Origin: Naegleria gruberi
Taxonomy: Eukaryota
Length of the DNA stretch: 64,000 bases
Assembly: GCA_000004985.1 (NCBI GenBank)
Contig: GG738858.1
Reading direction: 5' to 3' (one strand)
Part shown: positions 4,272 to 64,000 of the stretch, piece by piece
Layout of the letters: every line of letters begins with the position of its first letter
How positions within the stretch are numbered: position 1 is the stretch's first letter
The notes under the pieces: model-generated
What the model was told of the DNA's origin: nothing
What the model saw: only the letters and a program-made list of their open reading frames with translations
The model's database searches: none
Made by a program: the position numbers and the translations under genes

Positions 4272-4452
4272 TTTTTAATTAAGTTTTAAGACACATGAAT
4301 CTTTAAAGTTGTTCATGTAGTCTTTTTGAGGAGAATTTTACTCCCTGTTCAAAGTATTAACATTTGATATTTGGGCATTTAATTAAAGTAGTACCACAAC
4401 ATCTTTCTCGGCCAATTGGCTTTGATCGAGTGAAGTTTCTGTTCTTTTCAGT

Positions 4453-6323: not shown

Positions 6324-6394
6324 CTCGAACGCCGGGAATTGAACCCGGGTCGCCAGAGTGACAGTCTGGAATGCTACCACTATACCACGCCCGA
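6324..6394 (-). tRNA. trnD-GUC: tRNA-Asp (anticodon GUC)
   Basis: Reverse complement is TCGGGCG TG GTAT AGTGGTA GCAT T CCAGA CTGTCAC TCTGG CGAC CCGGG TTCAATT CCCGG CGTTCGA G. It gives a cloverleaf with the anticodon loop CUGUCAC and a GGTTCAATTCC T-arm. Confidence 0.8.
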
Positions 6395-19125: not shown

Positions 19126-19196
19126 AGGGAGATAGTTCAGTGGTAGAACATGGGATTGTGGTTCCTAAGATCAGGGTTCGATTCCCTGTCTTCCTA
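19126..19196 (+). tRNA. trnH-GUG: tRNA-His (anticodon GUG)
   Basis: AGGGAGA TA GTTC AGTGGTA GAAC A TGGGA TTGTGGT TCCTA AGAT CAGGG TTCGATT CCCTG TCTTCCT A. It gives a cloverleaf with anticodon GUG. Confidence 0.75.
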
Positions 19197-19279
19197 CACC
19201 TTTTATTTTATTTTTTACCCAATAAGAATATCTGGTATTTTATAATTCTTGTTCGATTTTTTTAATAAGAACATCGTAA

Positions 19280-19351
19280 AGCAAATTGGCGCAGCGGAAG
19301 CGCGATGGGCTCATAACCCATAGGTCCTAGGATCGAAACCTAGATTTGCTA
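19280..19351 (+). tRNA. trnMi-CAU: initiator tRNA-Met (anticodon CAU)
   Basis: AGCAAAT TG GCGC AGCGGAA GCGC G ATGGG CTCATAA CCCAT AGGTC CTAGG ATCGAAA CCTAG ATTTGCT A. Eukaryotic initiator hallmarks are present: A1:U72, three G:C pairs in the anticodon stem, and an A-rich ATCGAAA T-loop. It is followed by a T6 run. Confidence 0.8.
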
Positions 19352-25900: not shown

Positions 25901-28687
25901 TTGGTTGTGTTTATTATGGATGTGATTGGAAATATCGATTTCAGAAAGTCAGCAACTGTCTACCTGTCACCTTTTAGTGGAACAGCTACTCAATTGACAG
26001 AAAAGATTAATTCATTGACAGGATATGCAATTACTGTTGCCTCCTATGATCAATCCTTGTCATTATTGAGTAGTACAGTTAGTGATTTAACTCTCAGTCT
26101 GATTAAGAACATTACAATTGATCCAAAATTCCCAACAGCTGCTCTTAATAGTTTACAATCTTTGACAGCTGATGTCAATTCATTGACAAGAGAAATTGTT
26201 ATTGAGGTGAATAGCAAATTGAATGGATTTATTACATCTGTGAATGGCAGCTATGCTGATGATAAGAAGAATTACGGATTTGTCAAGAGCAAACTAGCAA
26301 ATTCTGATGTGACTTTGACAGTTTCTGTCAGTTCTAATTTATTGCAAAGTGTATTCGAAAGTGAAGGTACCAAGAATGTTGTCAATCAATTGGTTTCTAC
26401 TATTTTATTTGGAGAAATCGCTAACATGATTCAATCAAGTCAAAAAACACTTAGTTCAGTTTCGTATAGTTCCAATCTAATTGACTTTGCAGTTTCCAGC
26501 TTTATATTGTCCAATCAAGTGAAATCGAATCAAACTCAATCTATCCTTATGGGTAACTACACCAGTGTCTCTATGAATATTTCAAATATCATGAGTCAAT
26601 ATAATGCATTCTCAAAAGATTGTGGAATTTCTCTAATTGTCTATTCCAAGAATACTAACTTTGACAATTCTACTAACAAATTGAAACTTGTTTCAAGTGT
26701 TAACGATTTCAAGTTCAGCGTTGATTCATCTGTTGTGCCTCTCTCAGATTTGACTCAACCAATTATTCTTCAATTTGAGCTTGTGGACGAATTGACTACA
26801 ATTTTAGAATCTTTGAAAAATGAAACTCTGAATGTAACTCAAAATGATCCAACTCAATCCCTCTCAACCAATGAACAAAAGTATTTGTGTAAATATTGGG
26901 ACGAATCAAGTCAATTGTGGAGTTCTAAAGGATGTTCCTTCAAGAGTGTGAATTTACAATCCAAAACAATTGAATGTTCATGTGTTCACACAACCATGTT
27001 TACAACATTCATTGAACAGAACAGTACATTTATCAGTAATCTTAAAGATCAAGTATCAGCTCTCTATTCAGTCCAAATAGCTTTTGGCATCATCTATGCA
27101 AGTGTTGCTACTGTAATTTTAATTGGATTAATTGCATTCAGAAAGGAACAACCAGTTTCCTCCAGATTAATGACTCCATATTTTGGAATGGTTGCCTTGA
27201 TCGCAGAAAGTGTTTTGATTTACATTATTCAGAGAAGTATTTTGGCTGATCAATTGTTGAATTCTTCACCATCTGTATGGGAAACTGGTGATACAGCTGC
27301 TAATATTATTGCCAATGTAGTTGCTATCGTTGTCAATACTTTGAATTTGACAGCTATTTTGAGCTATGTCATTCAAGTGACAAGATTCCAATTAATGAAA
27401 TACTTGTATCAAATCTTGTCTTCCAGTAGAGGAAATGAACAAAAGAGTGAACATACAATTAATGTTATCAGATTTTTGACAGCTCCAAGTTTGTCAAATT
27501 CAATTCTTTCAGCATTTGCTGGTGTGAATGTAATTTATTGGTTATTGTGGGTAATTTTGAGAAGAACCAATGCAATTGAACCAGCCACCTATACTTACAT
27601 TGTTTCCATTTCGTATACAGTGTGCATTCTTGTATTCAGTGTCTTGATTACTATTGTGGCTGTTTTAGATTTTATTGGCTCTACAAAGAAACATTTGGAC
27701 ATGAATACAAAGAGAAGAACAGCTATGGATCACTTAGTTGAGAATCCAAGCTCTAGTTTCAAGAAGGATAAGAAGAAATTCGTTGGAAATCCAGCCAAAA
27801 TTTTCAGAGATTGGCTTATTACATTGGACGGTCCTCTCTACTTTAGAATGGAAATGATCTTGTACATTATTTGCTTTATTTTCTTAGTTTTGAATCAAGG
27901 TATTGGATTGAGTAGTTTACCATACAGATATGAAAGTGTTGATTCATTTAGAAAAGCTCTCCTTTCTGATGGAATTTCGTTTATCTTTGAAGTTTTATAT
28001 GTAGTGAGCTATATTTTCGTATTTGGTGGATATGCACTGATTATCACACTCAAATACAAGTATCAAAAGTGGAAATATCAACAAGCACTCAAGGCAGCAG
28101 CTACAGAACCTCAAAATGAGGAAATTTGGATTGATGAGGCAGTTGATGAAATTCTCTCATCCCAAGAAGGAACAAGTCTATTCGAAACTTTTTGTGTCAA
28201 GGAATTCTCATGTGAAAATCTCTATCTCTATCAAGATTTACATGCCAATAAGGAAATTATTGATGGAAACAATTTCAAGGACCTTCCAAGATTCATGTCC
28301 TTTGTTTTCCACAACTATGTCAAAGTGGGAGCTCCATCAGAAGTCAACCTACCTTCCAGTAGTAGAAACTCATTCCTATTCCTCTTCAGATCAGCACTCT
28401 CTCAAAAAGAAACCTTCTCCTCCAGCCAACAAATTAAATTGGATTCGAATCTGTTGCGAGATTTCGAAGCAGTAGAAAAGGAAATTCACACCGAAAATAT
28501 TCCAATTGTCGAGTTGAATGCAACAAATATTAAGGATTGCTTTGAAAATTTGGATAGAAATGTTTTGATTAATATTGGAGATACCTTCTCTCGATTTGTT
28601 TACACTCCGGAATATAAGATTTTTAAAAAGGCAAAGGAATTGCAAAATGCAATGATTCAAAAGGCAAATATTGTGTATGGATTGTAA
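22928..28687 (+). CDS. adhesion-GPCR-like giant receptor: signal peptide, bulb-type lectin, about 20 EGF-like repeats, Ser/Thr-rich stalk, GPS motif, 7TM, C-terminal RGS domain (1919 aa)
   Basis: ATG at 22928 with a hydrophobic leader. Lectin signature (CRLVMRNNGELVMYSS). Repeated C-x-C-x-x-G-[FY]-x-G-x-x-C EGF units. GPS consensus C..W......W...GC....(17)..C-S-C-V-H-T-T-M-F. Seven hydrophobic helices at about aa 1360-1660. RGS signature (FETFCVKEFSCENLYLYQDL). Single exon. Confidence 0.75.
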   Translation: MTRLLLTTVVICISILLALTGYISAAVTCNGVDQTDPSTCSGHGLCKSNNNCACLDMSPANTLISQTGGYNGIPTTLNTSRTLTSSNGQYQASLDPSTGRLQVQDVTNSTIVYQSATLLSAALFAPFELRLFVPSSTTCQISIYGNNVLGLTLTGTVSAILPCRLVMRNNGELVMYSSAGFVWWTTNPSLSTGTEDLIYQGVNCASPTCYGILAESPNVCSGNGTCTFTNSCSCKSGHFGDLCDAFKCFGNLANDTLNVCSGNGNCISPNVCSCNSGFYGPNCDLIKCFDVLSNETSSVCSGHGICSSTDNCTCANGYLGSKCNQFECFGISNSVTSGLQLPCSGNGTCTGIDQCVCQSGFIGNECETFKCSNFLKNDTLNVCSGNGSCIAPNQCSCQSGFFGSTCEAFKCGNALFNSSSVCSGNGFCNAPDQCICKNGYSGSLCDKFTCFGIANDLTSGGPLAVCSGNGTCSALDKCICNSGFLGDSCDTFKCFNKLKNDSLVCSGKGSCILPETCSCSLGYEGLNCDGFKCFNKLKNDSSVCSGNGLCTDINQCSCKNNWLGLDCSVTSCFNLLSNDTTVCSSKGSCVGFNQCSCQSGYFGSLCDVKKCFSYLSNETSLVCNGQGTCTDLDTCSCNSGFLSNDCSVNTNPFSISLNVSSLSIYQATSWNSVKISLSEVLNVNLINFNWYCLDCVTRTSSNLQKGLVSSSQILQFRTSDLVAGTFTFIANATFSNISPYPKRVSNSVSFKLTVLDINVPTLDVFGLPSVIISKIDQPISSIVSSMTLNQTLIQSFIGKCSNVSCSTQVTYSWTISSADNTFKASSDGITNILNLVDSTITISPPIQLTTNLLSLLNSTLTFSLSIVNPLLKSLTSLIQIPIVSPALPPTVNIPGWTSDVYGANTTISNVMRVSPSQGISLTNLFTITIESWSADSRLLPLKYAVGFYDKKTSKPIRVTEYSNQTEISIYLPYMKSSSSKRSITADLESVELVVFIMDVIGNIDFRKSATVYLSPFSGTATQLTEKINSLTGYAITVASYDQSLSLLSSTVSDLTLSLIKNITIDPKFPTAALNSLQSLTADVNSLTREIVIEVNSKLNGFITSVNGSYADDKKNYGFVKSKLANSDVTLTVSVSSNLLQSVFESEGTKNVVNQLVSTILFGEIANMIQSSQKTLSSVSYSSNLIDFAVSSFILSNQVKSNQTQSILMGNYTSVSMNISNIMSQYNAFSKDCGISLIVYSKNTNFDNSTNKLKLVSSVNDFKFSVDSSVVPLSDLTQPIILQFELVDELTTILESLKNETLNVTQNDPTQSLSTNEQKYLCKYWDESSQLWSSKGCSFKSVNLQSKTIECSCVHTTMFTTFIEQNSTFISNLKDQVSALYSVQIAFGIIYASVATVILIGLIAFRKEQPVSSRLMTPYFGMVALIAESVLIYIIQRSILADQLLNSSPSVWETGDTAANIIANVVAIVVNTLNLTAILSYVIQVTRFQLMKYLYQILSSSRGNEQKSEHTINVIRFLTAPSLSNSILSAFAGVNVIYWLLWVILRRTNAIEPATYTYIVSISYTVCILVFSVLITIVAVLDFIGSTKKHLDMNTKRRTAMDHLVENPSSSFKKDKKKFVGNPAKIFRDWLITLDGPLYFRMEMILYIICFIFLVLNQGIGLSSLPYRYESVDSFRKALLSDGISFIFEVLYVVSYIFVFGGYALIITLKYKYQKWKYQQALKAAATEPQNEEIWIDEAVDEILSSQEGTSLFETFCVKEFSCENLYLYQDLHANKEIIDGNNFKDLPRFMSFVFHNYVKVGAPSEVNLPSSSRNSFLFLFRSALSQKETFSSSQQIKLDSNLLRDFEAVEKEIHTENIPIVELNATNIKDCFENLDRNVLINIGDTFSRFVYTPEYKIFKKAKELQNAMIQKANIVYGL

Positions 28688-46002: not shown

Positions 46003-46178
46003 AATTTTATATTTAATAAATTCTGAATATTTATTTTACAATAAATTGAAGGATTTACAATCCAATCAAATTAAACTTTCTTTAAAATTCTTGAAATAAT
46101 TTTGATTGATATGAAATTTTGCCGCCAAAATTTTAACAAGCTTCAAAGCAAAAACCAAGTTAAAAAAAATTCCGCAAT

Positions 46179-49100
46179 ATGAAATATGCACAAATCCTCC
46201 TTCTCATCATTATTATCATAATTTGTTTTCTTTCTTCTCTTTCTTCCGCTCAAAATTCGATTCTTTTTGTTGAACCAAAAATTGGACGAAACCAAACTAA
46301 TTGTTCCAATCCGAATCTTCCCTGTGATTCAATATCCAATGCACTGTTATCAGTTCTGCAGAATAATAACACAACAATAGTGAGGATAATTTTACTTTCC
46401 GATATTACAAAATGTACTTTGAAAAATATTCCAACTTTCGTCAAGGAATTGGAAATTATCGGAAACAATGAAACTCTAAAATTTACATGTAATATTGATA
46501 CACACTCATCCTATTTGAAATTAACAGTTTCTAATTTGACATTAATTGGAGATTTCTCTGTTGATGGATCACAGGAAAGTGTCATTTTGGAAAATGTAGT
46601 TTCTTCCAATTTCATGATTATTATTTCGAAACAAATCGTATTTAACAATGTGAGGACCACTGGTTATTCTACAGTGTTCGTAATAGCATCATCTTCTTTA
46701 GAAATTGATAATTGTCAAATTAATGGAAGATTTTCTGTTCAGACTGATGGTTTGAAATATCCGAAAACATTTATTAGAAACTCAATATTTAGAAATAGTT
46801 TATTGACTATTGGACTTGAAACTGTCTTTGGAGTATCAATTAATTACAGACAATTGTTTGTAATTTCATCATCTTTTTATGATTCAATCTTGTTGGTGAA
46901 GGATAATTCAATAATAAGTATAAGAAACTCTATTTTTGATGGATATTTCTCTTCAGTGAGTAAGGATCAGGGAAGTATTCTGTACGTTTCGTCATATTCC
47001 CCTTCAGCTCTTACTGTGTATGATTCAGTTTTTAGAAATAACATTGTGGATGGAGCTGTACGATTGATTGGAGCAGGAATCAATTCATACTTTAAAAATT
47101 GTTCATTTTCTGATAATGCCAATCATTCTGGAGGTCCAGCTCTCTACTTGGCCAATATTTATGCAGCTGTCATTGAGAATTCAGTTTTTATTAATAATGA
47201 ATTTGTAAGGTTGAATGTCTCTAATGTACAAAATAGAGAGGAGTTGGGTGGAGGAGCAATTTTTCAGAGACAATCCATTCTGACCACTGCTAATTGTTCC
47301 TTCATTAATAATAGAGCTAATCAAGGTCTTGGTGGAGCAATTTTGACAAGTCATTCGACGATTTATAATAGTAATGATGATGTAAGTATTCTTGAGCTAA
47401 TTGAAAGTTGACCATTCATGTAATTAGGTATTTTTTAATAATACAGCCAAGATTGGTGGAGCAATAGCCACATTAGACACAAGTTCATTCCTTGCAGCTT
47501 CTATTGAGAGTTCTAAATTCCTAAATAATTCAGCAACCATGTTGGGAGGAGCTATCTTTTCCTTTAAAAGTAAATACGTTAGCATTCCAGTTCTAACAGA
47601 TTTTATTGGAAACAGAGCTCATTACGGAGGAGCCATTTATTCAGTTTCTACTTATTTTAGAGTATACGATGTTGAACTTGTTGATTTTCAAGATAATTAT
47701 GAAACTGGACCTAATGGTGAGAAATTATTAAGTAATTACAAATCATTTCCTGACAATTTTAAGTTGAATATTACAAATTCCAATAATATTAAGGAAAAGA
47801 CATTCAATGTAAATTTTGGAGAACGTGTAGAGATTCAATTCTCTCTTTCAGAAACGTACAGGTATTTGCACAGCGATTTCATAGACAATAGTCCAATAAG
47901 TATTGATATTAAGGTAGATGGAGCTGTCATTGATTTTGAAGGATCTTCATATAGAAAAAATATCATGGCAACATTTTACAGTAATTCCAAAGAGAGAAAG
48001 AAATTTACATTTACTATTACCTTGAGTTTTGATGTGTTAAAATCATTCACCTATTCAGTTTCAGAAACTTTCACAGTCGAACCAATGGAATGCAAACCTA
48101 GCTATTGGTATGACATGGTAGTTAAAAATCAAATCAACAACCAATCAGTGTATGGATGTGGTTTCAGTTGGTATAGCATTCTACCATTTATTTTCTTTGG
48201 ATTTTTAATAATTTCAGTAATTGTTATTGTAATTTCCTTGTTTGCCTTTTTCAAGATTAGGAAAATGAAGAGCAAACTCAAAATATTAGACAAGAAGGAG
48301 CAAGCAGAAGTGGAATTGAATCAAAGATTGATTGAATTGGAACAATTATACACCTCTGAATTACAAAACAAGTTTTACATGAAGGATTGGATGATAAAGG
48401 TAGAGGATATCAAAATCATTTCAAAAATAGGAGAAGGAGGAATGGGAGTTGTTTATCGTGGAATGTTTTCAATGCACGAAGTTGCTCTTAAAACTGTCAA
48501 GATTGACAGCGACGATCTTGAATCCAATGAATTTGAAAAAGAAGCAAGCATCCTTTCATCCATGAGACATCCCAACATTGTTGGATTCTATGGGGTTTGT
48601 GTTACTGACACAACCAGATTCATGGTCACTGAGTACATGTCTGGTGGAAGTTTGGATTCTTTCATTTACAATTGTAAAATCAAAACTCGACACATTACAA
48701 TCCCAATGAAAATCTCAATCTTGATAGGAATAGCCAATGGAATGAACTATCTACATACTGGAAAGGGTGACATTGTCATTCATCACAGAGATTTAAAACC
48801 AGCTAACATTCTCCTTACAAATGATTTAATTCCCAAAGTTTGCGATTTTGGATTATCGAAATTATCCAAAGATTCTGGAAAGAGCTCCAAAACAACCAAC
48901 ATAGGAACTCTGTATTTCATTGCTCCTGAAATGTTACTTGGAAAGGATTACAATCAAACAATTGATGTTTTCAGTTTTTCAATTATTATGTGGCAATTAA
49001 TATTTGACGAAACTCTTCTCTACGATTCTTCCTATTCCACTAATCCAAAGTTTACCAGATTTATGAAAAGTGAGGAAATCAAACAATTTGCCACATTGGT

Positions 49101-49392
49101 TGACTCTTCTTATATTCTAGTTCCAAAATTGGTTACAGAAGGATTACGTTTGCCCATTCCAAAGATTTCTTTGGATTCGACTGAATTACGTGAATGGATA
49201 TTTGAATATTTCATTAATGATGATGCAAAAATTGATATGCAATACAGAGAAGACTCATTTGAAAGATATTCGAATGGTTTGAGTGCTCTATTCGAATTGA
49301 TGGAAAAATGTTGGCGAGAATCAATTGTTGAAAGACCTTCCTTCAGTGTAATTTCGAAAGAATTATTAACCATTAGGAATATGTTCAAGTAG
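46179..49392 (+). CDS. receptor-like Ser/Thr (TKL-type) protein kinase with parallel beta-helix (PbH1-repeat) ectodomain, 2 exons: 46179-47381 and 47428-49392 (about 1055 aa)
   Basis: Signal peptide, then repeated [FI]xNNxA..GGAI beta-helix rungs. The 46-nt intron (GTAAGT..ATTAG, phase 0) restores the repeat ..SNDD|VFFNNTAKIGGAIAT. A TM helix (ILPFIFFGFLIISVIVIVISLFAFF) is followed by a kinase domain (GEGGMGVVY, VALK, HRDLKPANILL, DFGLS, APE). Confidence 0.7.
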
Positions 49393-50808: not shown

Positions 50809-51402
50809 GTGTGGATCTCTTGTATTGTTCTTATCTTTACCGACTTTCTTTACTACAAACCAAATAATTACTGCAATTAGTAGGGCAGTTAGTGGAATGA
50901 GGACTAGTAACATTAATAACCACATTAATGGATTGCTAGTTGCAGGTTTTTTGACAATTACTTTTGAATTAGATGAAGAGGAAGCTGATGGAGTTGGTTC
51001 AATTGATTTGTATTCAAGAATTGCAAGATTATATCCTAATGTTGAGCATTCACAAGTTGCTATTTGATTATTCTTGATAGAAATCGAACAATCAGTTTCC
51101 AATGATGCTGATCCAATGTTTGCACAAACATAAGCTGCCTGACTGTCGTATTGTTTCATCTCAATATCGAATAAATATTTCGAATATGATTGAGGTGAAG
51201 GATCAAGTTGTAAATTATTTACAACTGAATTGATAGATATCATCTTTCCAGGTTGATTTGCAATTGCAACGGTATCTGTATTTTTTTGAATAATCCATCT
51301 ATACTTGATTGGTGACTTGATTGAATTAGTTTTCAAGAAAGATGAAATGTTAAATGGTAATGTGATATTCACCATCTCACTTTCGAATTTCATTCCATTC
51401 AT
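50791..51402 (-). CDS. type-I-like single-pass membrane protein (ectodomain, TM LMWLLMLLVLIPLTALLIAVIIWFVV, short basic tail), about 203 aa; N-terminal signal may lie in an undetected upstream exon
   Basis: First ATG at 51402; the track start is TTG at 51435. The 3' end overlaps the 3' end of the 50047-50808 ORF by 18 nt. Confidence 0.35.
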   Translation of the reverse strand: MNGMKFESEMVNITLPFNISSFLKTNSIKSPIKYRWIIQKNTDTVAIANQPGKMISINSVVNNLQLDPSPQSYSKYLFDIEMKQYDSQAAYVCANIGSASLETDCSISIKNNQIATCECSTLGYNLAILEYKSIEPTPSASSSSNSKVIVKKPATSNPLMWLLMLLVLIPLTALLIAVIIWFVVKKVGKDKNNTRDPHSYMQM

Positions 51403-52494
51403 TTCATTCTTGAAATGTTTGTTTAAAACTGTCAAATAACTGTTAGTTTCAAATTTAAAGGGTGTGGATATTAATTTGCGCTCTTAAAACATCATTATTT
51501 ATAAGACTTCATATACATCAATATATATCATTAGATAGGAAATGTTCACGGCTACATGCTGATATATAATTTTAATATTGGTTGCTATCAAATAATGGAG
51601 ATAATCAACTCGTTTTACCTCAATATTTCTGTGTTTTTTGTTCTCTTGGGGGGGCTTGCTAGATACGCAACCATTTGGCAAAAGGTGAAAAATCGCATAG
51701 GTTCAACTTAATTCTCTACAAAATGACGTTGGGATATTTGCATTTAATTCAGTAATTGTTGAGTATTTTGTATTTGAATTGGTGTTAAACTTGTTAATTT
51801 TCTGTTGCTTAATAGCTGTGTTGAACAAGTGTGAAACTATCTTTAATTACGGTGCGCACTTATTCCGATATCATTAAGATCATTAAGGAACAAGTAAATA
51901 ATATTTATTAATATTATTTAGAAGGTGGAAGTGGTAATGTTTCTCACTCCACAAGTTATTTGCTTGTTGGCAGTGCTAATAGCCATGGATTTAAAGCCAT
52001 TATTTTGATAATCGCATTAATTAACTCCATTTTTAACCCTTTAAAATATTACGATTATCAAAATACAACGCCAAATTACTCTGCTTCCAACACTTTTCCG
52101 ATGTATGAATCTATTTATCAAGATCATCAGGATAATCTTCAATGATACTGAATTTAAGTAGATGGTGGAGGTACCATCTCTTGTTCATCAAGTTGAATCT
52201 TCCCCTCATCATTTGGTGAGGGAGCAACTTCTCCCTTCCATATTGTTTAATAAATTATTGTTATTATCATATAATGATACAATTCTTGTTGTTATTTGTT
52301 GTTAATTGTTGTTCTTAATAGAAGCCGACAATTCCAGGTCATACAACCACTTGGTTCTTCATATGAAGCATTTCTAGAAATTAAAGCTATAGCACTGTTG
52401 GTTCAGTGGTTGTATGCCGGATCGTCAATTAAGGGACGAGTGATCGATTCAAGGTGATTTTACTAACTTATTCATTATTACCACCTTATTTTTT

Positions 52495-52615
52495 TGGGTT
52501 TGGATCCCATGTCAACCCCTATTTATTAAGCTTTTCTCCTTAAATACATTAACAATATATATCACAAATGATGTCAAAAGATGGTGATTGTAATGGGGCA
52601 CAATATACGGCTGAT
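52495..52615. repeat. 120-bp dispersed subtelomeric repeat, copy 1 (copy 2 at 55195-55316), flanked by degenerate GGGTTT
   Basis: ttttggatcccatgtcaacccctatttattaagcttttctcc...ggggcacaatatacggctgatgtg recurs at 55195-55316 with 3 mismatches. Confidence 0.7.
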
Positions 52616-53303
52616 GTGGGTTTGGTTAGGATTCAGAGTTGATTTATTTGGGTTATTTAAGAGATTACTTATTGAAGATTCATATCATTGATTATATTTC
52701 TTATCATCTATAAATGATGTAAATTTGATGTTTTCATTTCTTGTATTGATAGATATATAAACAGGTCAGTACTAACTTTTGAAATATGGACTTTTAGAAG
52801 TCAAATGTTTGGGACGTGAATCTACTCATTGGATTGTGTTGGTATTGCTAATAAAGGAACATTTCATTGATTTATTGATTATAACGGTCAAATTGAGTTG
52901 AATGGAAGTGAATCAAATGTTGATTGATCGTGGATGGGTAGTTTCGCCACGAAGTGGTGCAACTACCAACCTTTGTAGATTGAATCAGGTTGATTTGCAT
53001 GCAATATGAATAAGTAACATTATCAAGAGTGATTATTCACCAATTCAATAATCAATATTCAATAATCGGTTTGATTTCAATCAATAGCTTGCTCATCAAG
53101 CTTTGAATCAAGATTCCAGTAATTAACGGCAGTCTATTTTTAAATTTAATCAAAGACCATATATAGTAGCTTGACTTTTATGATCTGGAAACTATCTAGA
53201 TGTGTTCTATATTGAATAATCTATTTGAAAATGAGATGAATTAACTCTTCTATTGAGTTTTATTGGTATTGCATGCTAATTACGATTATAATAATCTACA
53301 CAG

Positions 53304-55066
53304 AAATCACTCTTGAAATATAAACTGTAGTAGAACGTATGAGAAACATAATGGTGGTGGAATTAATCAATAACTCGTCGAAATGACTGAGATTAAATGT
53401 AAACTATGGTCCAAATGTCATGTATTTGTAACTAAACAGTGTCAACTCCGCCAAAGTGCTTTAAAAAAGATTTATATCATCAAAAACACTTCTAGACATC
53501 ACATATGCCATAAAGAATGAGTTTCAATATTTAATATTGTGAACAGACCCTGTTGGATACCATCCCTATAAATATAACAATATGAAAAGTGCCAATACTC
53601 AATTTCACATACATGTTACTATGGAGAGTCCTCATATTACCATCTAAACAGGTAGTATTTCAAGTTTCAGTGGAATTGACAGTCTAGATATTGAGAAGGG
53701 TATACTAAGGTGGAAGAAGTGTCACCTTCACTGATTATTGACATGAATATAACAATTGAATATATGATTCTTGTATAAGTATTTCATTATTCAATAATTG
53801 TAGAATTATAGTAAAACTTAATTTTGAAAATAAGATACTTCCCTATTTACTACCTTAGATGTTCCTTAGTTGACTTGAAGATATTGAGCCATGAATAGGA
53901 AACTTTCACAGATTGTTCTCCTCATCAAGGGTAGTGTATTCATATTTGATACTTGTATTATATTTTGTAAAATGAATGAGATGGAGCATATTCTACAAGT
54001 TGTTTCAAAACGTGTATAGATGTATATAAATGGCATAATCTTTGATTTTATGTCAAAGTTCTATAGTATAGTGATAGAGTTGACAACTCTTTATCTACTG
54101 AGCCAATATTCATGAAATTGATACCATATGTTAATTAGAGTGTCTACATATCATGATATCAATTTCATTGAAATTGGAGTTGTTTCTGGACCCTTCAGAT
54201 TCCATCAATCCACTCTGACAAATCAGCATGTACTATCTACTGGATGCATTTCTTGAAATGAAAACATATAATTTGATGATAGTCCACTTTATTTGAGATG
54301 TGGAACTCGATATTATCATTTATTTTGAGATTGGTAACTTTTCCTATAGTTTCATCCTTAATTGTCTTAATTGATCAAAAGAGGTCAAGGAGCGATTTCA
54401 AATCATAAAATAAATGATATTTTCGAGATGTACTATCGATTTCCAATCGATTGATATGTATTTTGTTGATTGACGATGTGGTTCTCTATATTTTCCTCCT
54501 GATCTTCCAAGACAACCTTGAAGTTTCACCCTTTGCCTTATTGAAAGATAGAATGTTCACCAAACTGTCTGAAAATTGAACCATATACATTAGTAGAGAT
54601 GTATAACATGATGGTAAAGTTTCATAAAGTGGTCATTTTCCAGAAATTCATCCATGTACACAGTTGACTAGTTGGTATGTTAGAGTTGAAATCATGAATA
54701 TGAAAGTGAAAATAAACTTGATATTCTATCTCTACACATCGAATGGAGCATTTTCATGTATAATTTGTTGATTGAAGTGATATATTTGATAGACTTGGTC
54801 TGACTTGTCTTTCCTTTCAGTCAACTTTGGAAAATCAACATTTACATTCCCATGGTACCATTTCTAATTCTTATGATATGAAATTGAATTCTATATCACT
54901 ATAGATCATATAAATCATTTTGGTAAAGTTTCAATAGGTGGTCCTTTTTCAAGATTTCCTCCTGTTGACCATGTGTGATTGAGGGAAGAAATCTTTAAAT
55001 ATGAAAGTTAAAATAAATTTGATATTCGATGTATACTCACCAAATGGAACATTTTCATGTCAGGAT
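53304..55066. repeat. subtelomeric segmental duplication, unit 1 (unit 2 = 55547-57155, about 85-95% identical with indels)
   Basis: Long colinear blocks are shared, e.g. catgaaattgatacc(a/ac)ata(tg/c)t(t/a)aattagagtgtctacatatcatgata and ttcaccaaactgtctgaaaattgaaccatatacattagtagagatgtataacatgatgg. Confidence 0.7.
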
Positions 55067-55546
55067 TCAATATGTTTTGATGAGAAACTCAAAAGTTATA
55101 GTTAACCTCTTTTACCTCACAACTTCCCTTTTCACTTGATACTTTTATACCTACAGACATGAAGTTTAGAAATTTCATATGAAAGTGATTATAAGGTTTT
55201 GGATCCCATGTCAACCCCTATTTATTAAGCTTTTCTCCTTAAATACATTAACAATATATATCACAAATGATGTCAAAAGATGGTGATGGTAATGGGGCAC
55301 AATATTCGGCTGATGTGAAATTGTTAAATATTTATATATATCAAGTTATGATGGTGGCTAGTGGCAATAAAATCACTTGATCAAAAGTATTTTTGCCGGT
55401 TGATCAAACCGAAAAACGCGCGGAAAAGTTAAAAATAGATTCAAGTTGATGTGAAAATGGCTCAGAATCGCAAGGATTAACAAAGCTTACTACTATATTG
55501 GAAGTGAATGTGCCATTTGGCACTCACTTCCATCAACTTTATCATA

Positions 55547-57155
55547 GAAATCACTCTTGAAATATGAATTGTACTATAATGTGCGAGTAACATACTGGTG
55601 TTGGAATTATTCAATAACTCTACGAAATGACTGAGATGGAACGTAAACTTTCTTCTAAGGTAAGTTAGGGGAATTTAAGATACTGAGCCATCAATGTGAA
55701 ACTTTCTCAGATTGTTCTCCTCATCTAGAGGAGTGTATTCATATTTGACACTTGTTTGATATTTTGTAAAATGAATGAGATGGAGTATATTCTATATGTT
55801 GAAATATGACAATTTGACAGATTGTTATTATTATCATATTGAATTCAATTCTAAAACATTAAAATTGATTCCAGTTGTATAACAGTGTGACTAAATGTAT
55901 CTGGTAAAGTTACATGATGGTTGGATGTACTTTCGCTGAGATAGAGCGTACACTTGGATATAATCAATCTTGACATTGAACATTTACTGATTGACTGAAT
56001 GAAAGTATCATGAATTGTTTCTAAACTTGTATAGATGTATATAAATGGTGTACAGAATGTGTAGTATCAATACTAGACTAATTTCATATAAAATAAGTGA
56101 TTTGGAGCATAATCTTTGATTTTATGTCAAAGTTCTATAGTAAAATGATAGAGTTGTACTCAATATCTACTGAGCCAATATTCATGAAATTGATACAACA
56201 TACTAATTAGAGTGTCTACATATCATGATATTAATTTCAGTGAAAATGGAGTTGTTTCTATATCCTTCAGATTTCCAGCCATTCCATTGAATTACCACCA
56301 TGTACTATCTAACGGATGCATTTCTTGAAATGAAATTATATAATTTGAAGAAAGTCCACTTTATTTGAGATGTGGAACTCGATATTATCATTTATTTTGA
56401 GATTAGTAATTTTTCCTATAGTAGCACCCTTAATTGTCTTAATTGACCAAAAGAGGTCAAGGAGAGATTTCAACACATAAAATAAATTATATTTTCGAGA
56501 TGTACTATTGATTTACAATCGATTGATATGTATTTTGTAGATTGAGGATGTGGTTCTCTATATTCAAGATTTCCTCCTGATCTTCCAAGACAACCTTGAA
56601 ATATCACCCTTTGCCTTATTGAAAGATAGAATGTTCACCAAACTGTCTGAAAATTGAACCATATACATTAGTAGAGATGTATAACATGATGGCAAAGTTT
56701 CATAAAGTGGTCATTTTCCAGAAATTCATCCGTGTCCATAGTTTATCAGATGGCATGTTAGAGTTGAAATCGTGAATATAATAGTTAAAATAAACTTAAT
56801 ATTCTATCTCTACTCATCGAATGGAGCATTTTCATGTATATATTGTTGGTTGAAGAGATGTATTTGATAGAGTTGGTCTGACTTGTCTTTCTCTAAAGTC
56901 AACCATAATATTTCAACATTTACCTTCCCATGATACCATTTCTGATTTTTATGATATGAAATTGAATTCTACATCATAAAATATCATCTAAATGATGTTG
57001 GTAAAGTTTCAATAGGTGGTCCTTTTTCAAGATTTCATCCTGTTCATCATAGTTGACAGTATGATGGTTGAGGGAAGAAATCTTTAAATATGAAAGTTAA
57101 AATAAATTTGATATTCGATGTATACTCATCAAATGGAACATTTTCATGTCAGGAT
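55547..57155. repeat. subtelomeric segmental duplication, unit 2; it ends abruptly in an interstitial GGGTTT tract
   Basis: See unit 1. Unit 2 terminates at ..cattttcatgtcagga followed by tgggtttgggtttgggtttgggta. Confidence 0.7.
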
Positions 57156-57176
57156 GGGTTTGGGTTTGGGTTTGGG
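57156..57176 (+). repeat. interstitial telomeric repeat (GGGTTT)x3.5
   Basis: gggtttgggtttgggtttggg read directly from the sequence. Confidence 0.8.
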
Positions 57177-58330
57177 TATGGCGAAAACCCATTACCATTT
57201 TATTAATGGACAATATTGAAAACTTGGATCTTATATATGTTAATCAGGGTACAATTTTATCGACAAACTGTTATATGCTAATAAAAACTCAAAGTGGTTC
57301 TAGAGATAATAGGTACTCGATGAAAAAAAAGTTAGGTTTTCTTCGCATATCTCAATAACTAGGAATATCTGAAATACCATCTACACATAATCAATAGATC
57401 AATATATGAGTTGACTAAATCCGGTGAAACATTTAAAAAATAGTCGGAGGCCAAAAAGTTATAAGGCATTGCCTAAAATATTAAGGTATTTACCCTAGTA
57501 GGTCTAAAATTTCAAAGTTGAGTTGGATTGTAAATTTTTATATATTGTAGATATATGTATGAATAGATGATATTTTGAATTAATCATGTTAAATCGGTAT
57601 ATATATAAAGTTACATCTTGTCTAAAAATCAACTTTTCAACATTTATTGTACTATAACACGAATGTTATTAGAATCATCACCAATCTCATATATATGATG
57701 TATATTGATGATATCCACCGTGTAGAAGTGTTTGAAGTATAATATATGATATCCTTAGTATACTGTACTCATTCTACCTTAATTGACCAAGATATTGAGC
57801 CATACTATGGAAACACTATAACATTCAATCAAACTTATAGATATTGTAGTAAATATCAAATATAATCATATATAATTGAAATAATTATTATTGGATCCAT
57901 ATTCAGACTGTAGGAAGTCAACTTGTGTGGAATTGACAATATTGGTTATTGAAGGATGAATATCTTACATGACTTAATTCCACTCATTGACACATGTCTA
58001 ATTATCATATTTTATGATATGTAATTGAAATAATTGAAATCTATCATATATATAGGGAGATAACCAATTAGGATGAAAGTAGGGGAAATTAAGCTCACTA
58101 TTTACCAGGTAAACACTTTCAATAGGGACCTATATATTTTATTTGATAATATCGTTTAACTATGCATTTTATCGATAAATACCTCGTTTCATGATGTAAT
58201 ATTCTATATTTCCAATTTGGGAAATGTTGCAATGTCAATTCTCAATAGAAATATTTCCATAATACCAATTATTGATTATGTATCATGAAACTGATATTAT
58301 AGACTCTAATTGATGTATATATGAATACAT
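57177..58330. repeat. telomere-associated sequence (TAS) repeat, copy 1 (other copies at 61172-61690 partial, and 62636-63783)
   Basis: Colinear identity of about 90% with 62636-63783 (e.g. tatggaaacactataacattcaat.aaac...gggagataaccaattaggatgaaagt.ggggaaatta.gctcact). Copy 1 diverges after ..gactctaattgatgt. Confidence 0.7.
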
Positions 58331-59871
58331 AATTGAAATATATCAATTTTGACATTTCTTAATGACATGGATAGTTCACTAAGGTAGTAACTTTGTCATA
58401 TGACAACTATCTAAGATGATATTGAAATCATTCCAAAACTGATAATATGAGAGTATATGATGATTATAACACGATATCAATGAATTGGTATTGATTTTAA
58501 ACATTGTTGACATGTAGGAATGTTACCTTTGATCAATTGGACCAGTAACTTGACAGATATCCCATTTATATAGATATTGATTTCTATCACTCAGAAACGT
58601 TACCAATATCATTTATAAGAGTAGTGGTATGATATTCTATCTTTTTGCACATCTTGATATTGACTTGTCATATTGTCATGAGTAGTCACCGACATGGCTA
58701 AATGACATGAATATTGAATGATGTCCAAATGATTTGAAATTGATAGTAACCTCATTATATGATGTTATTAACATATTGTATCAATTTGGTAATGAATCTC
58801 ATTGTCCTTAGGGTACTTTCCTATTGAGGTACCTTAATTGACTATCTCAATATTTAATATGAGATATGATATTTATTTCAATTCCACCATGTTGTATATG
58901 TAATTTGAAGCATTTTGATATAAGTTTTGATATATAATTATGATTTATTAGACATTATATATAGCATGTCTTAGTTTTACAAATTTGACTTTGAGATTCC
59001 CTAATTGACCATATATATATGTCCAATTGGTGAAACTAATATCAATCGACTAGATTTTCAATTGTGAACACAGTGGTATCAATAGTTATATGATTCATGA
59101 TAGTTTAAAATTGACTTGGTCATCTAAGGATAGGTCATTAAGGTTTGAATGAATTGATATGAAAATCAATACCAATTATTGAAATACCATTATTAATTGA
59201 TCTATATATGATATTGTAATTGAAAGATTTTAAAATTAATATGATTTCACTATCTTGACATTTATTATTCTCATGATTACACTCCTGACAGGTTGAATGA
59301 TTTCAAATTGTCATGAAACTGATGCAGTAGTGTTTATTCACCATTAGTAAGGTAATGTATCAATTATATGATGATCTGTATAGTAGATGTCATTGTCACA
59401 TCCCTGTATGTATCAAGTGGATCAGCCATGTACCATGTATGATATGGATGAATGTCAAAATGATATTAATGTATTTAATTATCATGTATATATGTATTGG
59501 AAGTGAATTGAAGTGGTATAGATTTCTATCTTCAATGTTAGTATAGGTCAGTTGACAAGTTGAATAGTATATTTCTTGAAATGATACCAAAGTATTTGAA
59601 ATTGATATATTTTGTTATTGACATGATTTATAAGATGATATATTGATTTGAAATGATTTTGAAATGTTTTCATTGATATTCTAATTGTCTAATCTATTAT
59701 ATGAAATAAACTTATATAAGTCATTATAATGATGTAATATTATGTTATAATATGATTATATATTCAATTTGGAGTATATTGATATATAATATATTGATTT
59801 ATAATGAGTATTTATTGAGATAATTAATTAAGATGAATAAAAGTCAAAATGTTGGGTCTGACCTTAGTCGT

Positions 59872-60175
59872 GGGTTTGGGTTTGGGTTGGGTTTGGGTTT
59901 GGGTTTGGGTTTGGGTTTGGGTTTGGGTTTGGGTTTGGGTTTGGGTTTGGGTTTGGGTTTGGGTTTGGGTTTGGGTTTGGGTTTGGGTTTGGGTTTGGGT
60001 TTGGGTTTGGGTTTGGGTTTGGGTTTGGGTTTGGGTTTGGGTTTGGGTTTGGGTTTGGGTTTGGGTTTGGGTTTGGGTTTGGGTTTGGGTTTGGGTTTGG
60101 GTTTGGGTTTGGGTTTGGGTTTGGGGTTGGGTTTGGGTTTGGGTTTGGGTTTGGGTTTGGGTTTGGGTTTGGGTT
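59872..60175 (+). repeat. (GGGTTT)n telomere-type tract (about 50 units), truncated by assembly gap
   Basis: Perfect gggttt hexamers with 2 variants. It runs into N at 60176. Confidence 0.85.
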
Positions 60176-61171
60176 NNNNNNNNNNNNNNNNNNNNNNNNN
60201 NNNNNNNNNNNNNNNNNNNNNNNNNNNNNNNNNNNNNNNNNNNNNNNNNNNNNNNNNNNNNNNNNNNNNNNNNNNNNNNNNNNNNNNNNNNNNNNNNNNN
60301 NNNNNNNNNNNNNNNNNNNNNNNNNNNNNNNNNNNNNNNNNNNNNNNNNNNNNNNNNNNNNNNNNNNNNNNNNNNNNNNNNNNNNNNNNNNNNNNNNNNN
60401 NNNNNNNNNNNNNNNNNNNNNNNNNNNNNNNNNNNNNNNNNNNNNNNNNNNNNNNNNNNNNNNNNNNNNNNNNNNNNNNNNNNNNNNNNNNNNNNNNNNN
60501 NNNNNNNNNNNNNNNNNNNNNNNNNNNNNNNNNNNNNNNNNNNNNNNNNNNNNNNNNNNNNNNNNNNNNNNNNNNNNNNNNNNNNNNNNNNNNNNNNNNN
60601 NNNNNNNNNNNNNNNNNNNNNNNNNNNNNNNNNNNNNNNNNNNNNNNNNNNNNNNNNNNNNNNNNNNNNNNNNNNNNNNNNNNNNNNNNNNNNNNNNNNN
60701 NNNNNNNNNNNNNNNNNNNNNNNNNNNNNNNNNNNNNNNNNNNNNNNNNNNNNNNNNNNNNNNNNNNNNNNNNNNNNNNNNNNNNNNNNNNNNNNNNNNN
60801 NNNNNNNNNNNNNNNNNNNNNNNNNNNNNNNNNNNNNNNNNNNNNNNNNNNNNNNNNNNNNNNNNNNNNNNNNNNNNNNNNNNNNNNNNNNNNNNNNNNN
60901 NNNNNNNNNNNNNNNNNNNNNNNNNNNNNNNNNNNNNNNNNNNNNNNNNNNNNNNNNNNNNNNNNNNNNNNNNNNNNNNNNNNNNNNNNNNNNNNNNNNN
61001 NNNNNNNNNNNNNNNNNNNNNNNNNNNNNNNNNNNNNNNNNNNNNNNNNNNNNNNNNNNNNNNNNNNNNNNNNNNNNNNNNNNNNNNNNNNNNNNNNNNN
61101 NNNNNNNNNNNNNNNNNNNNNNNNNNNNNNNNNNNNNNNNNNNNNNNNNNNNNNNNNNNNNNNNNNNNNNN
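60176..61171. other. assembly gap (996 N)
   Basis: Run of n. Confidence 0.95.
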
Positions 61172-61690
61172 TATGGAAACACTATAACATTCAATCAAAC
61201 TCATTAATATAGTAGCAAATACCAATGATAATCATATATAATTGAAATAATCATGTTTGGAACCATATTCAGACTTGCGGAAGTCAACTTGTGTGAAATT
61301 GACAATATTTGTAATAGAAGGATGAATATCTTACATGACTTAATCCCACTGATTGATACATGTCTAATTATCATATTTTATGATATGTAATTGGAATAAT
61401 TGAAATTTATCATATATATAGGGAGATAACCAATTAGGATGAAAGTTGGGGAAATTACGCTCACTATTTACCAGGTAAACATTTTCAATAGGGACCTATA
61501 TATTTTATTTGATAATATCGTATATCTATGTATTTTATCGACATATAATTGGTTTCATGATTTTATTTTCTATATTTCCAATTTGGGAAATGTTGCAATG
61601 TCTAATCTCAATTGAAATATGGCCATAATACCAATTATTGATTATACATCATGAAACTGATATTATAGACTCTAATTGATGTTAATAGGG
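61172..61690. repeat. TAS repeat, copy 2 (partial, begins at gap)
   Basis: About 95% identical to 63265-63783. It ends with ..gactctaattgatgttaata followed by gggtttgggggttttggggtttgggtttgggtta. Confidence 0.7.
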
Positions 61691-61804
61691 TTTGGGGGTT
61701 TTGGGGTTTGGGTTTGGGTTAGACGAAAACCCATCGACGACTAACGAACGGCCAATATTGAGTATCTGAATTTCATATATGTCATTCAAATATAAATAAA
61801 AAGC

Positions 61805-62235
61805 TTTGGGTTTGTGGGGGGGTTGGGTTTGGGTTTGGGTTTGGGTTTGGGTTTGGGTTTGGGTTTGGGTTTGGGTTTGGGTTTGGGTTTGGGTTTGGGT
61901 TTGGGTTTGGGTTTGGGTTTGGGTTTGGGTTTGGGTTTGGGTTTGGGTTTGGGTTTGGGTTTGGGTTTGGGTTTGGGTTTGGGTTTGGGTTTGGGTTTGG
62001 GTTTGGGTTTGGGTTTGGGTTTGGGTTTGGGTTTGGGTTTGGGTTTGGGTTTGGGTTTGGGTTTGGGTTTGGGTTTGGGTTGGGTTTGGGTTTGGGTTTG
62101 GGTTTGGGTTTGGGTTTGGGTTTGGGTTTGGGTTTGGGTTTGGGTTTGGGTTTGGGTTTGGGTTTGGGTTTGGGTTTGGGTTTGGGTTTGGGTTTGGGTT
62201 TGGGTTTGGGTTTTGGGTTTGGGTCTGGGTTTGGA
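61805..62235 (+). repeat. (GGGTTT)n telomere-type tract (about 70 units), truncated by assembly gap
   Basis: Perfect hexamers after a degenerate start (gggtttgtgggggggttggg). Confidence 0.85.
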
Positions 62236-62285
62236 NNNNNNNNNNNNNNNNNNNNNNNNNNNNNNNNNNNNNNNNNNNNNNNNNN
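62236..62285. other. assembly gap (50 N)
   Basis: Run of n. Confidence 0.95.
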
Positions 62286-62618
62286 ATGATTGGAATAAAT
62301 TTCACTGAGATGGAGTGTTCACTAGGATATATATAATTTTGATATTGAACATTTACTGATTAATTTTATGAAAATAGTTTGAAATGTTTCTTAACTATTG
62401 TAGATGTATATTAATTGATATATAGACTATGTGGTATCAATTCTAGACTTATTATATGTAAAATGAGTGAGTTGGAGTATAATCTATGATATTATGTAAA
62501 ATGTCTATAGTAAATTGATAGAGTTGACATCTCGACATCTACTGAACCAATATTCATGAAATTGATACCACATACTAATTAGAGTGTCTACATACCATGA
62601 TATCAATTTCAGTGAAAT

Positions 62619-62634
62619 TGGGTTTGGGTTTGGG
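62619..62634 (+). repeat. interstitial telomeric repeat (GGGTTT)x2.5 capping a truncated copy of the segmental-duplication unit
   Basis: ..tcaatttcagtgaaatt|gggtttgggtttggg|agactgtagggtaaatccattaccc. The sequence before it matches 54150-54175 and 56230-56256 of the duplicated unit. Confidence 0.75.
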
Positions 62635-62635
62635 A

Positions 62636-63783
62636 GACTGTAGGGTAAATCCATTACCCAAATTTAGTTGTCCAATTGTTGCAAATTGACTTTTACCAAT
62701 ATCATACTAGACGTTGTACACTATATAATAAAAAAGAAATGGAATTTTAATTCACTGTACTTATTCAGAAAATCAACTCTGAAAACTAGTGCTTAACTTT
62801 TATTTTTCATTTCCTAGTAACGAGTATGACTTGGAACACAATCATTTCAAGTATGACAGATACACATATGAGTTGACTATAATCACAAAAATATTTGAAA
62901 AATATAAAGTCTAGAAAAAGTTATAAGGCACTGCTTAAAACATAAAGATTTTTACCCTGTTGGGTCTGAAATTTCAAAGTTGAGTTGGAATGTAAATTTG
63001 ACTATATTGTAGATATATAGATGAATAGATGATATTATGAATTAATCATGTTGAATCGGTATATGTAAAAATTACAACTTGTCTAATAATTAACTTTTCA
63101 ACATTTATTGTACTATAATATGAATATTATTATAATCATCATCAATCTCATATATATGATGTATAATGATGATATCTACCTTGTAGAATTGTTGGAAGTA
63201 TAATATATATTATCCTTAGTATACTGTACTCATTCTACCTTAATTGACCAAGATATTGAGCCATACTATGGAAACACTATAACATTCAATAAAACTCATT
63301 AACATAGTAGCAAATACCAATGATAATCATATATAATTGAAATAATCATGTTTGGAACCATATTCAGACTTGTGGAAGTCAACTTGTGTGAAATTGACAA
63401 TATTTGTAATAGAAGGATGAATATCTTACATGACTTAATTCCACTCATTGATACATGTCTAATTATCATGTTTTATGATATGTAATTGAAATAATTGAAA
63501 TTTATCATATATATAGGGAGATAATCAATTAGGATGAAAGTTGGGGAAATTACGCTCACTTTTTACCAGGTAAACACTTTCAATAGGGACCCATATATTT
63601 TATTTGATAATATCGTATATCTATGTATTTTATCGACATATAATTGGTTTCATGATTTTATATTCTATATTTCCAATTTGGGAAATGTTGCAATGTCTAA
63701 TCTCAATTGAAATATGGCCATGATATCAATTGTTGATTATACATCATGAAACCTGATATTCTAGACTCTAATTGATGTTAATA
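62636..63783. repeat. TAS repeat, copy 3 (full length), immediately proximal to terminal telomere tract
   Basis: See copies 1 and 2. Confidence 0.7.
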
Positions 63784-64000
63784 GGGTTTGGGGGTTTTGG
63801 GGTTTGGGTTTGGGTTAGGTTTTGGGTTTGGGTTTGGGTTTGGGTTTGGGTTTGGGTTTGGGTTTGGGTTTGGGTTTGGGTTTGGGTTTGGGTTTGGGTT
63901 TGGGTTTGGGTTTGGGTTTGGGTTTGGGTTTGGGTTTGGGTTTGGGTTTGGGTTTGGGTTTGGGTTTGGGTTTGGGTTTGGGTTTGGGTTTGGGTTCGGG
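63784..64000 (+). repeat. terminal (GGGTTT)n telomere tract with G-rich strand 5'->3' toward window end (chromosome end to the right)
   Basis: gggtttgggggttttggggtttgggtttgggttaggttttggg, then perfect gggttt to the last base. Confidence 0.8.

Follow-up and report, generated by a model that had tools for sequence, protein, structure and literature searches.

Organisation of the chromosome end

The 64,000-nucleotide stretch of DNA analysed here (the window) is the right-hand chromosome end of a Naegleria gruberi NEG-M scaffold (contig GG738858.1, NCBI GenBank assembly GCA_000004985.1). Genes end at about 51.5 kb, and the sequence between 52.5 and 64 kb is non-coding. An earlier note, made from the letters of the sequence, had described this terminal region as a mosaic of nested duplications punctuated by telomere repeats; it had ascribed the mosaic to repeated breakage, de novo telomere addition and re-extension by subtelomeric recombination, or alternatively to the stacking of several chromosome ends by the assembly. 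The subtelomere distal to the last gene is, as read from its sequence, composed of two block types: a 'B' block, consisting of a 138-bp element and a unit of about 1.7 kb, and a telomere-associated sequence (TAS). Duplications were found by self-BLAST of the window, and sensitive settings extended the short element to 138 bp. Telomere tracts were identified by Tandem Repeats Finder (TRF), pattern search and direct reading. The terminal region is made up of three contigs, here contig 1 (1-60175), contig 2 (61172-62235; 1,064 bp) and contig 3 (62286-64000; 1,715 bp). The features are listed in Table 1.

Table 1. Features of the window, from the chromosome body to the terminal telomere tract
Feature	Position	Strand	Remarks
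Chromosome body, gene-dense (actins, tubulin, kinases, tRNAs)	1-51500	.	Long standard-code open reading frames (ORFs), Pfam matches
Innermost degenerate telomere-like seed, TTTGGGTTTGG	52493-52503	+	Exact homology start of the 138-bp element
138-bp element, copy 1	52496-52633	+	97.6% over 123 bp; 92.8% over 138 bp
Second degenerate telomere-like seed, GGGTTTGGTTAGG	52618-52630	+	Distal end of the 138-bp element; copy 2 reads AAATTGTTAAATA
Subtelomeric unit, copy 1, non-coding	53299-55066	+	Self-BLAST; without ORFs or Pfam remnants
138-bp element, copy 2, starting with GGTTTTGG	55195-55332	+	Self-BLAST, junction alignment
Subtelomeric unit, copy 2, truncated at 57155	55543-57155	+	89.7% over 1032 aligned nt
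Short interstitial tract, (GGGTTT)3GGGT, 22 nt	57156-57177	+	Inside contig 1
TAS1, longest copy, 2.69 kb: start motif, leader of about 218 nt, core 57396-58316, TAS1-only extension 58317-59870	57178-59870	+	Alignments; self-BLAST
Long tract A, 51 units, 48 perfect	59871-60175	+	Contig 1 ends within it
Scaffold gap, 996 N	60176-61171	.	Directly after tract A
TAS2, distal 516 bp of the core; cut where TAS3 is also cut	61172-61687	+	96.9% to TAS3, 91.2% to TAS1
Interstitial tract, 33 nt: GGGTTT GGGGGTTTT GGGGTTT GGGTTT GGGTT	61688-61720	+	Inside contig 2
Second TAS start, 84-nt fragment, TAS1-type leader, truncated and capped	61721-61804	+	73% over 93 bp, E=7e-13
Long tract B, 72 units, 66 perfect; first and last units irregular	61805-62235	+	Contig 2 ends within it
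Scaffold gap, 50 N	62236-62285	.	Directly after tract B
Subtelomeric unit, copy 3 (fragment), truncated at TTGG microhomology 62618-62621	62286-62621	+	Self-BLAST
Short interstitial tract, (GGGTTT)2GGG, 15 nt (17 nt with flanking TT)	62620-62634	+	Inside contig 3
TAS3: start motif, different leader of about 220 nt (62635-62857), core 62858-63778	62635-63783	+	Alignments
Terminal tract C, to the window end	63784-64000	+	TRF/pattern search

Telomere repeat tracts

The terminal region holds six (GGGTTT)n tracts, and in every one the + strand is the G-rich one, running 5' to 3' toward the end of the window. The repeat unit, GGGTTT/TTTGGG, agrees with the candidate telomere published for N. gruberi, TTTGGG, which a survey of telomeres across eukaryotes took from the genome sequence (PMC3622300). 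Allowing at most one mismatch, GGGTTTGGGTTT has 153 matches, all on the + strand, against 0.48 expected from shuffled sequences, and none on the opposite strand. Telomere repeats are hence present both internally and terminally, as had been claimed, and the N-gaps said to adjoin the long tracts also exist. The window ends inside a telomere tract, and from its sequence we take the terminus to be a genuine chromosome end. The three internal scars measure only 2.5-5.5 repeats (15-33 nt); these short tracts lie inside contigs, exactly where one copy stops and its paralogue continues.

The B block

The short duplication, previously put at 120 bp, is real: 52496-52618 corresponds to 55195-55317 at 97.6% over 123 bp and can be extended to 138 bp. 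Homology between the two copies begins exactly at GG(G/T)TTTGG. Outside the tracts, GGGTTTGG octamers occur just twice in the 64 kb, at 52496 and 52618, where they flank copy 1 of the element. These two seeds are read as probable older, decayed telomere scars (a relic interstitial tract), and telomere-like tracts are most decayed innermost (52493-52503, 52618-52630 and 55195-55202) in comparison with the perfect tract at 57156-57177. This arrangement suggests a larger B block, 52496-55194 and 55195-57155, that may start at a telomere seed, as TAS does. The seed that follows copy 1 of the 138-bp element (52616-52640), GTGGGTTTGGTTAGGATT, aligns with GTGAAATTGTTAAATATT of copy 2 (55315-55340); the differences are mostly G-to-A and look like the decay of an old interstitial tract.

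The duplication of the unit of about 1.7 kb is likewise real, but patchy rather than continuous. Three pairs of segments align, namely 53299-53405 with 55543-55649 (84%), 53866-54002 with 55665-55801 (87%) and 54033-55066 with 56107-57155 (88.9%), the patches being 82-90% identical overall by self-BLAST. A segment of about 450 bp is private to copy 1 and one of about 305 bp to copy 2. Within the distal part of the unit lies a degenerate tandem duplication, whose period is about 310-340 bp and whose identity is 70-77%, at 54573-54759 / 54881-55060 in copy 1 and at 56651-56837 / 56995-57149 in copy 2. Two further relationships were considered and rejected: the matches between B and TAS are too weak and non-colinear for these to be diverged versions of one 2.7-kb element, and the similarity of the 138-bp element to the TAS start does not rise above shuffles.

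The TAS copies

The TAS core is shared at 86-90% between TAS1 (57396-58316) and TAS3 (62858-63778), and the part of it at 57806-58316 is paired with 61172-61682 in TAS2. TAS2 and TAS3 are the closest pair, with 61172-61722 matching 63267-63818 at 96.9%. The earlier note had placed the same TAS element of about 1.15 kb after each cap. This is right for the core, but the first 218 nt or so after the cap, the leaders of TAS1 and TAS3, are 47.9% identical, which is chance level, except for a start motif of about 20 nt. Local alignment of the first 125 nt of these two copies scored 14 against 10.9±2.0 and is not significant; the 84-nt stub in contig 2, aligned with the TAS1-type leader, scored 25 against 10.1±1.6. 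The start motif (..CGAAAACCCAT.. / ..AAATCCATTACC..) is common to all three junctions between a tract and TAS. Set against random subtelomeric 32-mers, the first 32 nt at the first junction resemble those at the second (P=0.003) and those at the third (P=0.002).

Two other parts of the earlier description do not hold. TAS2 starts at the N-gap and shows no preceding cap, and neither TAS1 nor TAS2 directly precedes a long tract. TAS1 runs 1.55 kb past the point at which TAS2 and TAS3 are cut, and this extension (58317-59870), which is otherwise unique sequence, separates it from tract A; between TAS2 and tract B lie the 33-nt telomere tract and the 84-nt second TAS start (61721-61804). TAS1 and TAS3 each have an interstitial tract on the proximal side and telomere repeats on the distal side. 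Within a single contig, TAS is found in tandem only as TAS2, the 33-nt tract and the 84-nt TAS stub, and full tandem copies are found only across N-gaps.

Several smaller features were observed in TAS. In about 9.6 kb of non-tract subtelomere, AAACCC/CCCAAA hexamers occur on the + strand only at 57185-57190, 61727-61732 and 62657-62662, which is 8-23 nt after the three tract-to-TAS junctions, or one inverted telomere unit per TAS start. This inverted unit can pair with the last unit of the G-strand in a weak hairpin (z = -0.7 to -1.8), and with folds this weak a stable hairpin at the junctions was rejected. A motif, TAATTGAAA(T), is enriched in TAS, with five occurrences in TAS1 (57873, 58022, 58031, 58330 and 59217) against about 0.1 expected from the genic part; further sites lie at 61239 and 61397 and at 63334, 63483 and 63492. 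The B blocks lack it, and the motif does not occur on the opposite strand.

Truncation junctions

The points at which the unit copies are truncated can be read by comparison with their paralogues. Copy 2 ends ...CATGTCAGGAT/GGGTTTGGG (...CAGGAT/GGGTTT), where copy 1 continues ...CATGTCAGGAT/TCAATATG (...CAGGAT/TCAA). Copy 3 ends ...GTGAAATTGG/GTTTGGGTTTGGG (...GAAATTGG/GTTTGGG), where copies 1 and 2 read ...GAAATTGG/AGTTGTTTC (...GAAATTGG/AGTTG), and its junction includes the 4-nt TTGG microhomology at 62618-62621. Telomere repeats start exactly at the divergence point, at 57155 in copy 2 and at 62621 in copy 3, while the paralogues continue; the microhomology between telomere and paralogue at repeat onset is 0-4 nt of G/T. 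Truncation of the unit at two internal positions, each with a short cap, is in this way confirmed. The two cuts are about 2.9 kb apart in unit coordinates, the cut in copy 3 being the 'earlier' one, and therefore a single join of unit, short tract and TAS, duplicated afterwards, cannot account for both. Truncation, telomere seeding and TAS acquisition took place independently at least twice.

TAS itself ends at 84 nt, 1.15 kb or 2.69 kb. TAS2 and TAS3 both end at the equivalent of position 58318, where TAS1 continues, and both are followed by the same five irregular units, GGGTTT GGGGGTTTT GGGGTTT GGGTTT GGGTTA. Beyond these shared units contig 3 passes into regular telomere and contig 2 into a TAS start, which is cut again after 84 nt and capped. 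Since TAS2 and TAS3 have the five irregular first units in common, TAS must have joined a telomere that was only about 33 nt long. The simplest reading is that an end like that of contig 3 was eroded to about 33 nt of telomere and extended by TAS, and that this TAS may then have been cut after 84 nt and re-capped. Copies differ by 3-14% in alignable regions, and by up to about 22% in one segment of the unit, and for this reason the truncation and seeding events are considered to be old.

Coding, RNA and database searches

Across 52500-59870, the six reading frames have stops at a density of 6.3-8.6 per 100 codons and stay open for at most 85 codons; open stretches in the genic control are 88-402 codons long. 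A stop-masked six-frame translation of TAS1 matched no Pfam family at E≤1. The only match in the six frames of the B block, PH_PLEKHM2 (E=0.0018), has 18.6 bits, below the cutoff of 22, and is noise. With random-level stops and no Pfam remnant, TAS and the unit are taken not to derive from coding sequence or pseudogenes. No reverse transcriptase, endonuclease, gag or helicase ORF was detected in TAS by the ORF and six-frame Pfam scans. Rfam, including the hammerhead families, gave no family at E≤1 in 51000-64000; no structured RNA, tRNA or ribozyme was accepted in this region, a tRNA-like stretch at 52380-52450 not being called. The junctions have no poly(A) or A/T run.

Four pseudo-ORFs of TAS and the unit, concatenated and searched as protein, returned no matches, and a 28-mer conserved in all three TAS copies had none in metagenomes. 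A metagenome scan with a pattern for the telomere junction (telomere repeats plus AAAMCCATYR) returned nine matches, all unrelated: cyanobacterial-looking coding DNA of about 50% GC, and palindromic GGGTTT/AAACCC repeats of other eukaryotes. One metagenome contig, Ga0058698_10113851, is eukaryote-like (35% GC) and has repeated palindromic GGGTTTGGGTT...AAACCCGAAAACCCATTAAAT units at 300-560; its resemblance to the TAS start is superficial, and the match is due to the design of the pattern. A search with a Naegleria actin paralogue retrieved only a transcript-like Logan contig of 1.2 kb, and exact-protein look-ups of genes in the window returned no records.

The gene-dense body

Long ORFs in the standard genetic code densely fill the first 51.5 kb or so, with Pfam matches to actin, tubulin, EGF/RGS, Sel1-kinase and PMP-repeat kinase proteins. 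The actin ORF at 1542-2747(-) is identical (100%) to NAEGRDRAFT_44432 over all 378 aa. A ciliate origin of the Paramecium type, which the G3T3 repeats had brought to mind, was rejected on account of this identity and of the long ORFs in the standard code. A second actin-family gene, at 5500-6225(-), matches only positions 2-266 of the 410 in the Pfam Actin model, so it is truncated, intron-interrupted or a pseudogene. The two actin-family genes are about 70% identical in DNA (2026-2465 / 5582-6021), and a 188-bp direct repeat (1244-1431 / 4090-4277; 96.8%) adjoins them. The ORF at 8057-9394(+) is a divergent member of the tubulin family (Pfam Tubulin, 6e-47; Tubulin_C, 1e-8) with an unusual N-terminus, MKEIITIHVGGAGCQIG. 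The ORF at 22928-28684(+) encodes 1,919 aa with an array of EGF-like domains, visible in the DNA as internal repeats at 23552-24607 (64-69% identity), and an RGS domain. Immediately inside the subtelomere boundary, 46164-49389(+) contains two neighbouring ORFs. The ORF at 47428-49389 has a match to the Chlamydia-PMP-type repeat and a Tyr/Ser-Thr kinase domain, and the one upstream of it (46179-47411) matches no Pfam family; the two may belong to a single receptor-kinase gene that an intron or a frameshift divides. Three tRNA genes were identified, tRNA-Asp(GTC) at 6324-6394(-), tRNA-His(GTG) at 19126-19197(+) and tRNA-Met(CAT) at 19280-19351(+).

Origin of the mosaic

Seen directly in the sequence are the anatomy of the region, truncated copies whose paralogues run on, break points that are independent, and irregular repeats common to TAS2 and TAS3. 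On balance they are best explained by an ordinary mosaic subtelomere of the recombinational, Y'-like kind, in which duplicated non-coding blocks are joined via short telomere scars. Under such a model, an end would be lost back to an arbitrary point, or its telomere eroded to a few repeats. Telomerase would then seed TTTGGG repeats on the end, unless a few repeats had persisted. The very short tract could pair with the interstitial tract just proximal to TAS on another end, a sister or a homologue. Break-induced replication or gene conversion would then copy TAS together with its telomere onto the end, in the way that yeast acquires Y'. The outcome would be telomere scars of 15-33 nt at block boundaries and a TAS with a fixed proximal border and a variable, re-capped distal border. 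Repeated truncation, seeding and re-extension fits because the unit is cut at two positions and TAS at two; the recombinational copying step is one that we infer. The mechanism put forward in the earlier note, breakage followed by de novo telomere addition and re-extension, is thereby supported for the short tracts that lie within contigs at the cuts, and not for the long tracts, which have no distal contig continuity. Three points weigh against our explanation. The leaders of TAS1 and TAS3 are unrelated over about 220 nt, and therefore a single ancestral junction of tract and TAS does not suffice, and two or more TAS variants have to be assumed. A fixed proximal border with a variable distal one is equally expected from a telomere-primed retroelement. 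Finally, the presence of TAS or B at other N. gruberi ends, and the donors that the copying would require, are postulated from the sequence of this one end.

A retroelement of this sort is nevertheless improbable. TAS, and perhaps B, would be a non-autonomous telomere-targeting element whose RNA, paired by its 3' end with the G-overhang, serves as template for reverse transcription onto the chromosome end; such an element would give a constant proximal (3') border with variable 5' truncations re-capped by telomerase. The border is indeed fixed at three junctions with three different distal ends, the scars are just 2.5-5.5 repeats long, a start motif of about 20 nt is conserved, and endonuclease-minus (EN-minus) Penelope-like elements (PLEs) are known to attach via short reverse-complement telomeric repeats (PMC8557442). 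A short telomere tract at the TAS border is explained equally well without a retroelement, however, and TAS has no ORF above 85 codons, stops at random density in six frames, no reverse transcriptase, endonuclease, gag or Pfam family (E≤1, TAS1), no hammerhead or other Rfam family (E≤1, 51-64 kb) and no poly(A) next to the junction. Copies that diverge by 3-14% give no sign of recent activity, and the TAS1 and TAS3 leaders are unrelated. Less probable still is that the short tracts are not historical chromosome ends at all, being either artefacts (chimeric clones or mis-joins) or an intrinsic satellite-like motif. The scaffold is a gapped draft of the Sanger era, and subtelomeres are hard to assemble; yet the three junctions lie in three contigs with flanks that have diverged by 3-18%, so they do not stem from the same reads, and each shows the same architecture and TAS start motif. 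An intrinsic motif would not place the tracts exactly at paralogue divergence and at differing positions of the unit. We also think it unlikely, if less so than these two, that TAS and perhaps B form a dedicated non-coding 'end-repair cassette', with the start motif directing capture onto critically short telomeres by an RNA-templated or recombinational route. Naegleria would then have a backup pathway of the Y'/Athena type alongside telomerase, and the tandem stack with its long internal tracts would be real.

The long internal tracts at 59871-60175 and 61805-62235 call for a separate explanation. They are probably real termini, belonging to separate ends or haplotypes and joined on here by the scaffolder, and the stacking of chromosome ends, which the earlier note offered as its alternative, is at least as likely as its preferred account for these two joins, both of which lie at N-gaps. 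The NEG-M draft assembly is Sanger-based and mate-pair scaffolded. Neither long tract has contig-level continuity distally: each is followed by Ns and then by a contig that does not start in telomere repeats, contig 2 beginning mid-TAS and contig 3 mid-unit, and contigs 2 and 3 are only about one to three Sanger reads long. Tracts A and B are 96-98% perfect, as expected of termini maintained by telomerase. The 50-N gap is too small to contain the B block of about 720 bp that is missing before 62286. Contigs 1 and 3, moreover, each independently show the full order of unit, short tract, TAS and long tract, as paralogous ends would. The alternative, possible but doubtful, is that the scaffold order is real and that one end carries tandem modules in the order TAS1, long tract, TAS2, 33-nt tract, TAS stub, long tract, unit, short tract, TAS3 and telomere; in the equally doubtful process behind it, a telomere would, time after time, have invaded interstitial tracts elsewhere and added whole modules of other ends to itself by copying. 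Mate-pair links presumably guided the scaffolder in placing contigs 1, 2 and 3 in this order, which counts against stacking. The assembler linked the contigs in this way and sized the first gap at 996 N, which fits the missing 630 bp of TAS2 plus about 370 bp more telomere, and all the tracts have the same orientation. B blocks start at telomere-like seeds, so a junction of telomere and B is plausible. Long interstitial tracts are also known elsewhere, and this too weighs against stacking: in yeast telomere-to-telomere assemblies, Y' copies are separated by tracts of 20 to about 500 bp, the longest reaching 957 bp (PMC13177704). Because both long tracts abut N-gaps that are followed by contigs of 1.0-1.7 kb, we consider stacking somewhat more likely than a tandem. 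The last 3.8 kb of the scaffold are hence a probable scaffolding artefact, and its last two contigs are of doubtful placement.

Comparison with known systems and significance

Interstitial tracts often separate the Y' elements of yeast, whose acquisition requires break-induced replication (PMC13177704). As with X and Y' of Saccharomyces cerevisiae, where the interstitial tracts are of TG1-3 and Y' acquisition is type I survivor-like, TAS lies between a short internal tract and the terminal telomere, with tract orientation conserved; a partial second copy follows a short tract (TAS2, 33 nt and TAS stub), and acquisition onto very short telomeres would be a further common trait. Unlike Y', TAS has no helicase ORF or recognisable coding capacity, it measures 1.15-2.7 kb as opposed to 5.2-6.7 kb, and its leader varies between copies; for this comparison TAS is known from the sequence of one chromosome end. 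Subtelomeric interstitial tracts divide the subtelomeres of yeast and human (PMC6410037), and human duplicon mosaics have islands of degenerate (TTAGGG)n (Flint 1997 and Ambrosini 2007, cited in PMC6410037). The Naegleria end resembles such mosaics in its non-coding duplicated blocks, bounded by short or degenerate tracts in telomere orientation of which the innermost are the most decayed. It differs in scale, with kilobases in place of the tens to hundreds of kilobases of human duplicons, one end being compared here.

The junctions also resemble those of chromosome healing, in that repeats begin exactly where the paralogue continues, with 0-4 nt of G/T microhomology (TTGG, 62618-62621); the Naegleria events differ in being deduced from paralogue comparison and not observed. 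Athena and Coprina EN-minus PLEs, HeT-A/TART and MoTeR share with TAS a head-to-tail stacking at the terminus, a fixed centromere-proximal border, a variable distal truncation re-capped by repeats and very short repeats between elements. These telomere-attached retroelements are set apart from TAS by its lack of reverse transcriptase, gag, endonuclease, hammerhead ribozyme, poly(A) and long ORF. The missing reverse transcriptase, gag and 3'-end signature likewise separate TAS from SART/TRAS.

The searchable literature on Naegleria telomeres holds only the candidate repeat TTTGGG and nothing on subtelomeres, and a mosaic subtelomere with interstitial telomere scars is newly documented here for Naegleria and for the Heterolobosea. 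The TAS core, the B unit and the junction motif can serve as markers for locating and checking chromosome ends in Naegleria assemblies. The structure suggests that the same cycle of truncation, telomere seeding and copying of terminal blocks builds chromosome ends in a heterolobosean, distant as it is from yeast and mammals, and would in this way support the cycle as a general property of linear chromosomes.

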